Origin: a virus
Virus record (IMG/VR): IMGVR_UViG_3300020048_000070
Location: 30,624 to 94,623 of that record
Direction: 5' to 3' (one strand)
DNA length: 64,000 nt
Part shown: piece by piece, positions 2,308 through 4,106 of the stretch
How positions within the stretch are numbered: position 1 is the first letter of the stretch
Layout of the letters: every line of letters starts with the position of its first letter
Position numbers and translations under genes: made by a program
Notes under the pieces: model-generated
The model's database searches: none
Told to the model about the DNA's origin: nothing
Seen by the model: the letters and a program-made list of their open reading frames with translations, nothing else

Positions 2308-2520
2308 TCATCTAGTTCAAGATACCCAAGGATTGTAAATGAACTAGCATATTATAGATAACCAACATCTTGCAGTGAACCACTTTCTTTATTAAGCACA
2401 AAGGATGCAAATGAACCATTAATTTTAAGATAACCAAACCAAGAAAGTGAATCAATATACTCAAGATACCCAACGAAACGAAGTGAACCAGACATTTAAA
2501 GATAACCAAGTAATCAAAGT
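2302..2520 (+). repeat. TIGR-like dual-repeat guide array, upstream part (6 x 36-nt units)
   Basis: AAGATAMCCA-type repeats at 2319, 2355, 2391 (degenerate), 2427, 2463, 2499 alternate with AARTGAAYCA-type repeats at 2337, 2373, 2409, 2445, 2481; 8-9-nt variable spacers. Confidence 0.9.
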
Positions 2521-2540
2521 AAAAAACTAAAGGAGAATTA

Positions 2541-3494
2541 ATGGCTGCAAAAACAGTAGTAAAAGCAAGAGGAAGAAAACGTCAGGCAAACATTTGCGAA
2601 TTGACAGGAAAAGAACTTCCAGAGTTAAACTGCCTTGTTGATACAGATAGAAGGGTACCAAAGGCTAAAGGAGGAACGTATACTGATGTAAATACCCGTA
2701 TAGTAACTCCATTATCACACATGCAACGGCACGGTAACGTAGTTGAACGCGATGAACCTTTAGAAAAACTTAAACAAGCCTTTGAAGATAGGGTCCAGAT
2801 TCAAAAGTTGTATTTAAAACTCAACAATCAGCTCCTGGCTTGTAAACGTCGTACGGATAAGTTGAGTGACAGCACCATGAGTTTTATTGAAGAGCAGTTA
2901 GAAACTGTTGGTGAAGCCCTTAAAAATAGGGATCTTATAGTTAAAAAATCTATCAAGAATATGGCTAAAGATGACCCATTCATAGCTGCTGCCCTTGGTG
3001 TCTCAGGAGTAGGCCCAATATCTGTAGCTTGCTGTGCCTATTATATCGACCTTGAAAAAGCCCGCCACGCCTCTTGCTTGTGGTCTTATGCTGGTTTACA
3101 TGTACCAAGCACAGAGCGCTATGTAAAAGGAACTAAAGGTGGAGGAAACAAAACTCTACGTACTGTTTTGTACACAATGGCAGAGGCCCAGGTTAAATGC
3201 AATGGGGCATACCGAAAAGTATATGACGATGTAAAGCACCGTCTGTCATTGTCAGATAGAATAGTAAAAACTCGTAATACTGAAGGTAAATTAATAGAAT
3301 GTGCTTGGAAGGATGCAAAACCCAGCCATAGGCATGGAGCCGCTTTACGGGCAGTAATGAAGCATTTTCTTGCAGATTACTGGTACGCTGGCCGTGAAAT
3401 AAAAGGCTTGCCAGTAGGAGCTTTGTACCCTGAAGCAATGCTTGGCGGAGAACACCGTACCATTATGCCCAAGGAGCGTGGTTGGGTATACTAA
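2541..3494 (+). CDS. Tas-like RNA-binding protein: degenerate HNH + coiled coil + Nop/IS110 Transposase_20-like domain (TasH-like)
   Basis: GVGPIS...IDLEK...SCLWSYAGL...GNKTLRTVLY...YRKVYD...HRHGAALRAVMKHFLADYW resembles the IS110/Nop domain; no DEDD RuvC domain; N-terminal CELTG...VDTDRRVPKAKGGTY...N...H..RHG is HNH-like; flanked by 36-nt arrays. Confidence 0.85.
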   Translation: MAAKTVVKARGRKRQANICELTGKELPELNCLVDTDRRVPKAKGGTYTDVNTRIVTPLSHMQRHGNVVERDEPLEKLKQAFEDRVQIQKLYLKLNNQLLACKRRTDKLSDSTMSFIEEQLETVGEALKNRDLIVKKSIKNMAKDDPFIAAALGVSGVGPISVACCAYYIDLEKARHASCLWSYAGLHVPSTERYVKGTKGGGNKTLRTVLYTMAEAQVKCNGAYRKVYDDVKHRLSLSDRIVKTRNTEGKLIECAWKDAKPSHRHGAALRAVMKHFLADYWYAGREIKGLPVGALYPEAMLGGEHRTIMPKERGWVY

Positions 3495-3497
3495 TTA

Positions 3498-4106
3498 CTA
3501 TTCATCACCTAGAAGATACCCAATATAGGGAATGAATCATCACGAAAAAGATACCCAGATAATCTAAATGAACCTGGAAGCCAAAGGTACCCATAGAGTG
3601 TAAGTGAATCAGCATATTATAGATAACCAACGAAAGCAAATGAACTATCTCCTTTAAGGTGCCCAACTGTAAAAAGTGAATTAGGAAGATATAGATACCC
3701 AAGTAGGGTGAATGAGTCAAAGGTTGTAAGATAACCAGCGTGTTCAAACGAATCAGATAATCCAAGGTAGCCAACGGGAAAAAGTGAATCAAGCGCGAAA
3801 AGATACCCAATCCCGCTAAATGAACCAACGTATTAAAGATATCCAAGCTGTTAAAATGAATCAAGTAAGTAAAGATACCCAATGTCGGGAAGTGAATCAG
3901 AGCCTTTAAGATACCCATTTAAGAAAAGTGAACCGATAGAGTAAATAAACTCAGAAGCTAAAAATGAATCAAGTGGATAGAGATAGCCAAAAGTAGGAAA
4001 TGAACCACATGCATGAAATAAGCAACAGATGTAAGTGAATCATCCGAATAAAGACACCCATTGGCACTAAATGACCCAGCGCCCTTAAGATAACCACATT
4101 TAGAAA
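3498..4106 (+). repeat. TIGR-like dual-repeat guide array, downstream part (17 x ~36-nt units)
   Basis: GATA-type repeats at 3513, 3548, 3584, 3620, 3656, 3692, 3728, 3764, 3800, 3836, 3872, 3908, 3944, 3980, 4016, 4051, 4087, alternating with TGAA-type repeats; two 35-nt units. Confidence 0.92.

Follow-up and report, generated by a model that had tools for sequence, protein, structure and literature searches.

The TIGR-TasH family was described in 2025 (PMC12045711), and SpTasH of Salicola phage CGphi29 (Faure et al. 2025, PMC12045711; PMC13421893) is the described system to which the present locus is compared. The way in which the two spacers of a guide specify a target is documented by TaTasR tigRNA1 and its synthetic target oligos, in which the target strand (T) reads as spacer A and then, directly, the reverse complement of spacer B (PMC12045711). 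Exchanging A and B in a unit therefore yields a guide to the reverse complement of T, i.e., the same 18-bp site on the other strand, which reflects the two-fold symmetry of the complex. The two spacers have symmetric roles, and engineered tigRNAs with their spacers in B-A order cut in vitro (Faure et al. 2025, fig. S7E, PMC12045711). Spacer positions 3-4 have been published as the seed (PMC12045711). How TIGR arrays gain their units and what these units target are stated open questions in the founding paper (PMC12045711) and in a 2026 survey, and according to the same two sources no adaptation machinery is known for TIGR. In the papers that we consulted, among them the founding paper and the 2026 survey, we found no mention of natural units with swapped A and B spacers.

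The window, i.e., the whole stretch of DNA that was analyzed, comprises the final 64 kb of a 94.6-kb contig of an uncultured virus, a phage. On its plus strand, the tasH gene (2541..3494) encodes a protein of 317 amino acids in which PDB and Pfam comparisons delineate an N-terminal HNH nuclease and a Nop-type guide-binding domain. The homology to SpTasH is full-length, with residues 13-316 matching the SpTasH structures (PDB 21kl and others) at E = 2e-100. A second PDB match (9mty, E = 6e-9) is named merely as an IS110-family C-terminal-domain protein, and in Pfam the protein has a weak Transposase_20 match alone (22.8 bits); such a weak IS110-type signal is typical of Nop-domain Tas proteins. 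H60 and H64 align to H54 and H58 of SpTasH, the residues of the HNH-inactivating double mutant (fig. S8 legend; PMC12045711), and are nearly invariant across 11 relatives. The N-terminal part (2541-2740) also has the motif D-x-D-R...H-M-x-R-H-G in common with SpTasH, an active nuclease. As both inactivation-sensitive histidines are conserved, the nuclease is probably active. With a homologous Nop-domain Tas protein, the HNH histidine pair and a dual-repeat array adjoining the tas gene, the locus is a dual-repeat TIGR-TasH system and a clear member of the known family; the system type was already known and the window adds a further member. Dual-repeat arrays of this kind alternate two repeats of 8-12 nt with two spacers of roughly 9 nt in a 36-nt unit, and the window has 23 such units in register. 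No TasH was found in 185,579 species-representative bacterial genomes. The PolA of the phage is less than 25% identical to that of cultured phages, and no close relative of it was found in IMG/VR.

The tasH gene sits between two TIGR arrays on the same strand, which have a 36-nt period and together hold 23 units. The upstream array (2302..2526, plus strand), delimited by its 36-nt register and repeat scores, comprises six units, and the downstream array (3496..4113, plus strand) comprises 17, several of them with decayed repeats (units 7, 19 and 21). On the plus strand, each unit consists of an edge repeat A[AG]TGAA[CT]CA, a 9-nt spacer A, a loop repeat AGATA[AC]CCA and a 9-nt spacer B. The ninth spacer base is an A in 19 of the 23 A spacers and in 21 of the 23 B spacers. 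This organization closely follows that of Salicola phage CGphi29 (L001), which also has a dual-repeat array with a 36-nt period, 9-nt spacers and a mostly constant ninth A; edge and loop repeats are of the same types and both systems are phage-borne. The repeat sequences themselves differ (ARTGAAYCA and AGATAMCCA in the window versus AGCGAGCCA and AGACAACCA in the Salicola phage), as does the number of units, with 23 in the window compared to roughly 11 in the Salicola phage when counted by eye (our parser retained seven). Unlike in Salicola phage CGphi29, the arrays of the window flank tasH on both sides and neither is followed by a terminator-like site; each instead continues into the ribosome-binding site of the gene downstream of it. 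All four array ends carry truncated edges, and at the 3' end of the downstream array this edge merges with the ribosome-binding site that precedes the next ORF (4119).

The two array starts, 2303-2315 (ATTAATCATCTAG) and 3500-3512 (ATTCATCACCTAG), are homologous and agree at 11 of 13 positions. The arrays seem to have either a shared origin or a common leader-proximal element. The first downstream unit (unit 7) looks defective: its spacer A is short by 3 nt and 1 nt is missing before the next edge. Strongly decayed loop repeats occur at 2392-2400 (TTAAGCACA), 3945-3953 (ATAAACTCA) and 4016-4024 (AAATAAGCA), and some spacers are only 8 nt long. Part of the guide repertoire may no longer be processed.

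The edge (AGUG-AAUCA) and loop (AGAUACCCA) of the window are of the same types as those of the experimentally processed TaTasR tigRNA1 (AGCCA-A-UGAAACCCA-B-UGCG), and this match is one basis of our assignment of edge and loop. Judging from the homologous, characterised systems, the arrays would be transcribed together with tasH and a cut inside every edge repeat would release 36-nt tigRNAs composed of AAUCA, spacer A, AGAUACCCA, spacer B and AGUG. With each tigRNA, a TasH dimer would be expected to open an 18-bp site, spacer A representing the first nine nucleotides of one target strand and spacer B the first nine of the other. The published tigRNA1 and its target oligos uphold the two-strand geometry that the preliminary description of this DNA had taken as its premise, and its A and B labels agree with the published nomenclature.

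That description had drawn attention to units that recur with spacers A and B swapped, and the six units concerned are indeed found where it had placed them. When all 253 unit pairs are compared with exchanged spacers, the top three are exactly these pairs, with the same match counts as reported before. Unit 8 (3531..3566, plus strand; A at 3540, B at 3558) resembles unit 14 (3747..3782, plus strand; A at 3756, B at 3774), which has the variant repeats AACGAATCA and AGGTAGCCA, at 14 of 18 positions. Unit 1 (2302..2337, plus strand; A at 2311, B at 2329) resembles unit 13 (3711..3746, plus strand; A at 3720, B at 3738), which carries the variant edge repeat AATGAGTCA, at 13 of 18 positions. Unit 9 (3567..3602, plus strand; A at 3576, B at 3594) resembles unit 19 (3927..3962, plus strand; A at 3936, B at 3954) at 13 of 17 positions when offset by 1 nt. 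The middle repeat of unit 19 (ATAAACTCA) is degenerate, agreeing with the loop consensus at six of nine positions; shifted by one base, it is about equally close to the edge variant AATGAACTA (hand count).

The identity of the swapped pairs thus amounts to 72-78%. As already cautioned in the preliminary description, the near-constant ninth A inflates these matches, and omitting it lowers the identity to 69-75%. Over the eight variable positions of each spacer, pair 1/13 agrees at 11 of 16 positions and pair 8/14 at 12 of 16, while pair 9/19, at its 1-nt offset, agrees at 13 of 16 (hand count). Mismatches are unevenly spread, with three in one half-site and one or two in the other, and in the former they lie at spacer positions 1, 3 and 4 (A1 versus B13; A8 versus B14). 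Since positions 3-4 belong to the seed, the paired guides are not redundant and would address different 18-mers. In this respect the units of the window differ from the engineered B-A tigRNAs, which were designed as exact swaps and assayed with TasR in vitro; here, the units are natural, 72-78% alike and different in their seed. Two further regularities of the pairs were seen post hoc. The partners are collinear (1 < 8 < 9 and 13 < 14 < 19), and the first members sit at array starts whereas the second members carry variant or decayed repeats. The latter pattern would fit a renewal of old guides.

The swapped similarity was compared with several shuffled nulls. With letters or columns shuffled, p is 0.008-0.017 when only the best pair is scored, 0.0003-0.0026 with the two best pairs and 0-0.005 with the three best. 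A stricter null is the pair shuffle, which re-deals only the pairing of A with B and retains both single-spacer resemblance and word bias; it yields p = 0.025-0.06, 0.0015-0.014 and 0.0005-0.015, respectively. To account for the choice of statistic, five relations (swapped, same order, half-unit shift and two reverse-complement relations) were each scored for the single best, the two best and the three best pairs, allowing an offset or not, and the family-wise p over these 30 statistics is 0.006. The permutation comparison that had been suggested at the outset hence places the swapped similarity above its shuffled null. The same-order, half-shift and two reverse-complement relations are all at or below null in the window array, and the overall single-spacer similarity between the A class and the B class is not raised. 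The earlier argument that tandem duplication or a half-unit slip would not swap the spacers is borne out as well, given that the half-shift and same-order relations stay at null. The swapped excess is real and specific to this array, though resting on two or three pairs.

For comparison, arrays were parsed by script from TasH loci on viral and metagenome contigs; after removal of arrays that share spacers, 63 arrays with 745 units were retained. A swapped excess is absent from these 63 arrays: the lowest p over the six swapped statistics is 0.045 and not a single array (0/63) has a best swapped pair with p < 0.05. Swapped scores of at least 13 were observed three times versus 2.7 expected, none of them reaching 14, and no array contains near-identical swapped copies that would point to a recent event. 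The array of Salicola phage CGphi29 likewise shows no swapped excess. Under the same pipeline, the window array is the single outlier of 64. What is enriched in the 63 arrays is same-order recurrence, with eight pairs at 16/18 or more versus 0.37 expected. Examples of such duplicates, whose copies mostly agree at 16-18 of 18 positions, are found in L009, L003, L004 and L094. They resemble the pairs of the window in that units recur inside one array, but they keep the A-B order, as plain duplication would, and the window array has no same-order recurrence above null. Same-order pairs that have diverged to 13-14/18 are not enriched in the window array or elsewhere. Between arrays, units are shared in the same order only (six at 16 or more versus 0.4 expected), with no swapped pair at 15 or more versus 1.35 expected. 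Plain duplication is the usual route by which units recur in the TasH family, and swapped recurrence is no family trait.

Half-units can also recur by themselves. Units 2 and 10 have an identical spacer A (GCATATTAT), loop and initial 2 nt of spacer B (2347-2366 in unit 2; 3612..3631, plus strand, in unit 10), while the remainder of spacer B is different. This half-unit is shared by the two arrays of the window, and similar sharing of one half is seen in L009 and L010.

Three public runs contain the locus, and no RNA run does. Two aquatic runs of one study contain it in a form identical to the window and may be the origin of the window, whereas the shale-gas run X3, from another study, contains a strain in pieces that are 95-99% identical. 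In this sister strain, a contig joins position 2344 to 2481 via 28 other letters, which complete one different unit with CGAACTCCA as spacer A, AGATATCCA as loop and CATATAATA as spacer B. In the upstream array, the block of units 2-5 (2345..2480, plus strand) is thereby replaced, and units 1 and 6 are kept. Run X3 leaves 3674-4500 uncovered and is uninformative on units 13, 14 and 19. The replacement of four units by one indicates that arrays turn over between close strains, and that the change affects their interior and not the 5' or leader end, which argues against polarised addition. The best relation of the sister-strain unit to the units of the window is an exchanged one, to unit 10 at a 1-nt offset (score 12, p = 0.06), compared to p = 0.73 for the same-order relation; without offset, nothing stands out. 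This swapped match is a weak, non-significant echo of the excess in the window, and it comes from data that were not part of the preliminary description.

Target searches were carried out with the reconstructed 18-mers. Within the 94.6-kb contig of the phage itself, the 23 reconstructed targets, in both geometries, have no match above 15/18. In IMG/VR, T8 and T14 (the targets of units 8 and 14) have no exact match. A 16-variant pattern spanning pair 8/14 retrieves 17 matches there, scattered over about 11 contexts that are unrelated, and from these the background is put at about one match per 18-mer. T13 has one exact IMG/VR match, in a gene for an RlaP-like nucleotidyltransferase adjoining an ATP-dependent DNA ligase (G001; L123 6288-6305; L122 5989-6006), on a 33-kb phage fragment that is rated 6% complete. 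T19 has a 16/18 match on this contig as well, which is within background for 23 guides plus the control geometry. T1 also has one exact match in IMG/VR, in a provirus. The T1 and T13 loci have no similarity in DNA or protein, neither contig is related to the phage of the window, and neither is enriched for matches to other guides relative to a wrong-geometry control. As one match per 18-mer is the background rate, the T1 and T13 matches are probably not true targets; short spacers are known to yield many false target matches (2026 survey). When the guides of any TasH array were searched against all collected loci (606 kb), only matches by construction were obtained. The preliminary description had proposed to check whether the members of a pair hit homologous loci in related genomes. 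Formally, the unrelated loci of T1 and T13 speak against this, but at such a background rate they are not decisive.

Simple DNA events cannot swap a pair of spacers across a loop without also reverse-complementing them. The main readings of the swapped excess are therefore an origin of the units from target DNA or chance. Our tentative preference, with the excess regarded as specific to this lineage, is that the members of a pair guide TasH to 18-bp sites that are related without being the same (allelic, paralogous or motif-family variants) and that would have been recorded in either orientation. Both reading directions might be recorded because nothing in the system distinguishes them. This reading, which we hold with rather less than even confidence, draws on the corrected p of 0.006, on the confinement of the excess to one relation, on the turnover of units between strains, on the trend in the sister strain and on the activity of swapped tigRNAs in vitro. 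It shares with CRISPR primed adaptation the idea of an array that stores one guide after another to variants of a single target; CRISPR, however, has Cas1-Cas2, a PAM and polarised insertion, whereas the strain difference in the window is internal and not at the 5' end. The evidence on the other side consists of the small number of pairs (two or three, of short A-rich 9-mers), 63 negative arrays and zero supporting targets. Moreover, a general re-capture blind to orientation should produce diverged pairs in the same order just as often, and these are not enriched. The more specific proposal of the preliminary description, that guides were derived independently from variants of the same target sites in both orientations, is not established: none of the 63 arrays has an excess and no swapped units are common to arrays, while within the pairs the seed differs, T8 and T14 are without a match in IMG/VR, and T1 and T13 fall in unrelated loci at the background rate. 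Chance is almost as probable as the capture of related sites. The window would then simply present two or three exchanged resemblances of 13-14/18 among 253 pairs of biased 9-mers, picked post hoc. Among 64 arrays, about 0.4 would be expected to show an event with a p of about 0.006, and the absence of a swapped excess both in the 63 other arrays and between arrays fits chance. The modest identity (72-78%, or 69-75% without the ninth A), the p of 0.025-0.06 for the best pair alone under the pair shuffle and the lack of target support from the contig and IMG/VR searches are in line with it too. Chance accounts less readily for a family-wise p that remains at 0.006 after five relations, offsets and top-k choices are considered, for the other four relations being at or below null, and for an independent unit of the sister strain that leans toward the swapped relation.

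Two other explanations are considerably less probable than either. One possibility, which we regard as unlikely, is a guide-primed renewal, in which a TasH complex carrying an old guide would bind a near-cognate (escape) site, from which a new unit is copied in register; owing to the two-fold symmetry of the dimer, this unit could enter in either A/B order. Units 13, 14 and 19, which have decayed repeats and lie deep in the array, would be the old guides and units 1, 8 and 9, at the array starts, the newer ones. Such a process would account for units that are in register, similar but not identical, and exchanged. The distribution of mismatches (three in one half-site plus one or two in the other) resembles that of the partly matched wcaD site that is still nicked by TasR. 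Slightly less probable still is a rearrangement inside the array, in which duplication and recombination between edge and loop repeats (sharing an AAG start and a CCA end) re-phase half-units and leave the spacers of the two types in each other's slots, after which the copies drift. Unit 19 gives this some footing: it presents three successive edge-like repeats (E-x-E*-y-E) together with a 1-nt register shift, a form that a tandem duplicate would take after two deletions of 18 nt each. Half-units do move independently, as units 2 and 10 illustrate by combining the same spacer A and loop with a different spacer B, and same-order duplication is common in the family (eight pairs at 16/18 or more versus 0.37 expected). 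Yet, the loop repeats of units 13 and 14 are proper ones with edge repeats on either side, and the B(i)/A(i+1) pairings that would follow from a half-unit shift are at null. Swapping both spacers of one unit would further need two or more microhomology events, independent of each other and without any selective reason for occurring together, and near-identical swapped copies are missing among the 63 arrays. It is possible that unit 19, and only this unit, is a recombination relic.

The capture of related sites, if it indeed produced both A/B orders in nature, would imply that units are made from target DNA by an orientation-blind process. Any model of acquisition would be constrained by this, and the comparison used here is a cheap test that can be applied to thousands of arrays. 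At present, with one array, a corrected p of about 0.006, a weak echo in the sister strain and 63 clearly negative TasH arrays, the evidence is a lead and not a result, and the swapped pairs are a weak clue to how TIGR arrays gain guides. Firmer by-products of the analysis are that same-order duplication is the common form of unit recurrence in TasH arrays and that close strains can differ by an internal block of units.

Two minor observations concern the guides and the wider window. The spacer AGCGCGAAA (unit 15 A, 3792-3800) equals a B spacer in the unrelated TasH array L008 (3651-3659) and, with a one-base shift, a B spacer in Salicola phage CGphi29 (L001, about 3441-3449); the chance expectation for such sharing across arrays is not negligible (about 0.15 or more). 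The window also contains six tRNA genes in two clusters, at 13419-13590 and 30970-31320 (Leu-taa, Met-cat; Ser-gct, Ser-tga, Glu-ttc, Tyr-gta).
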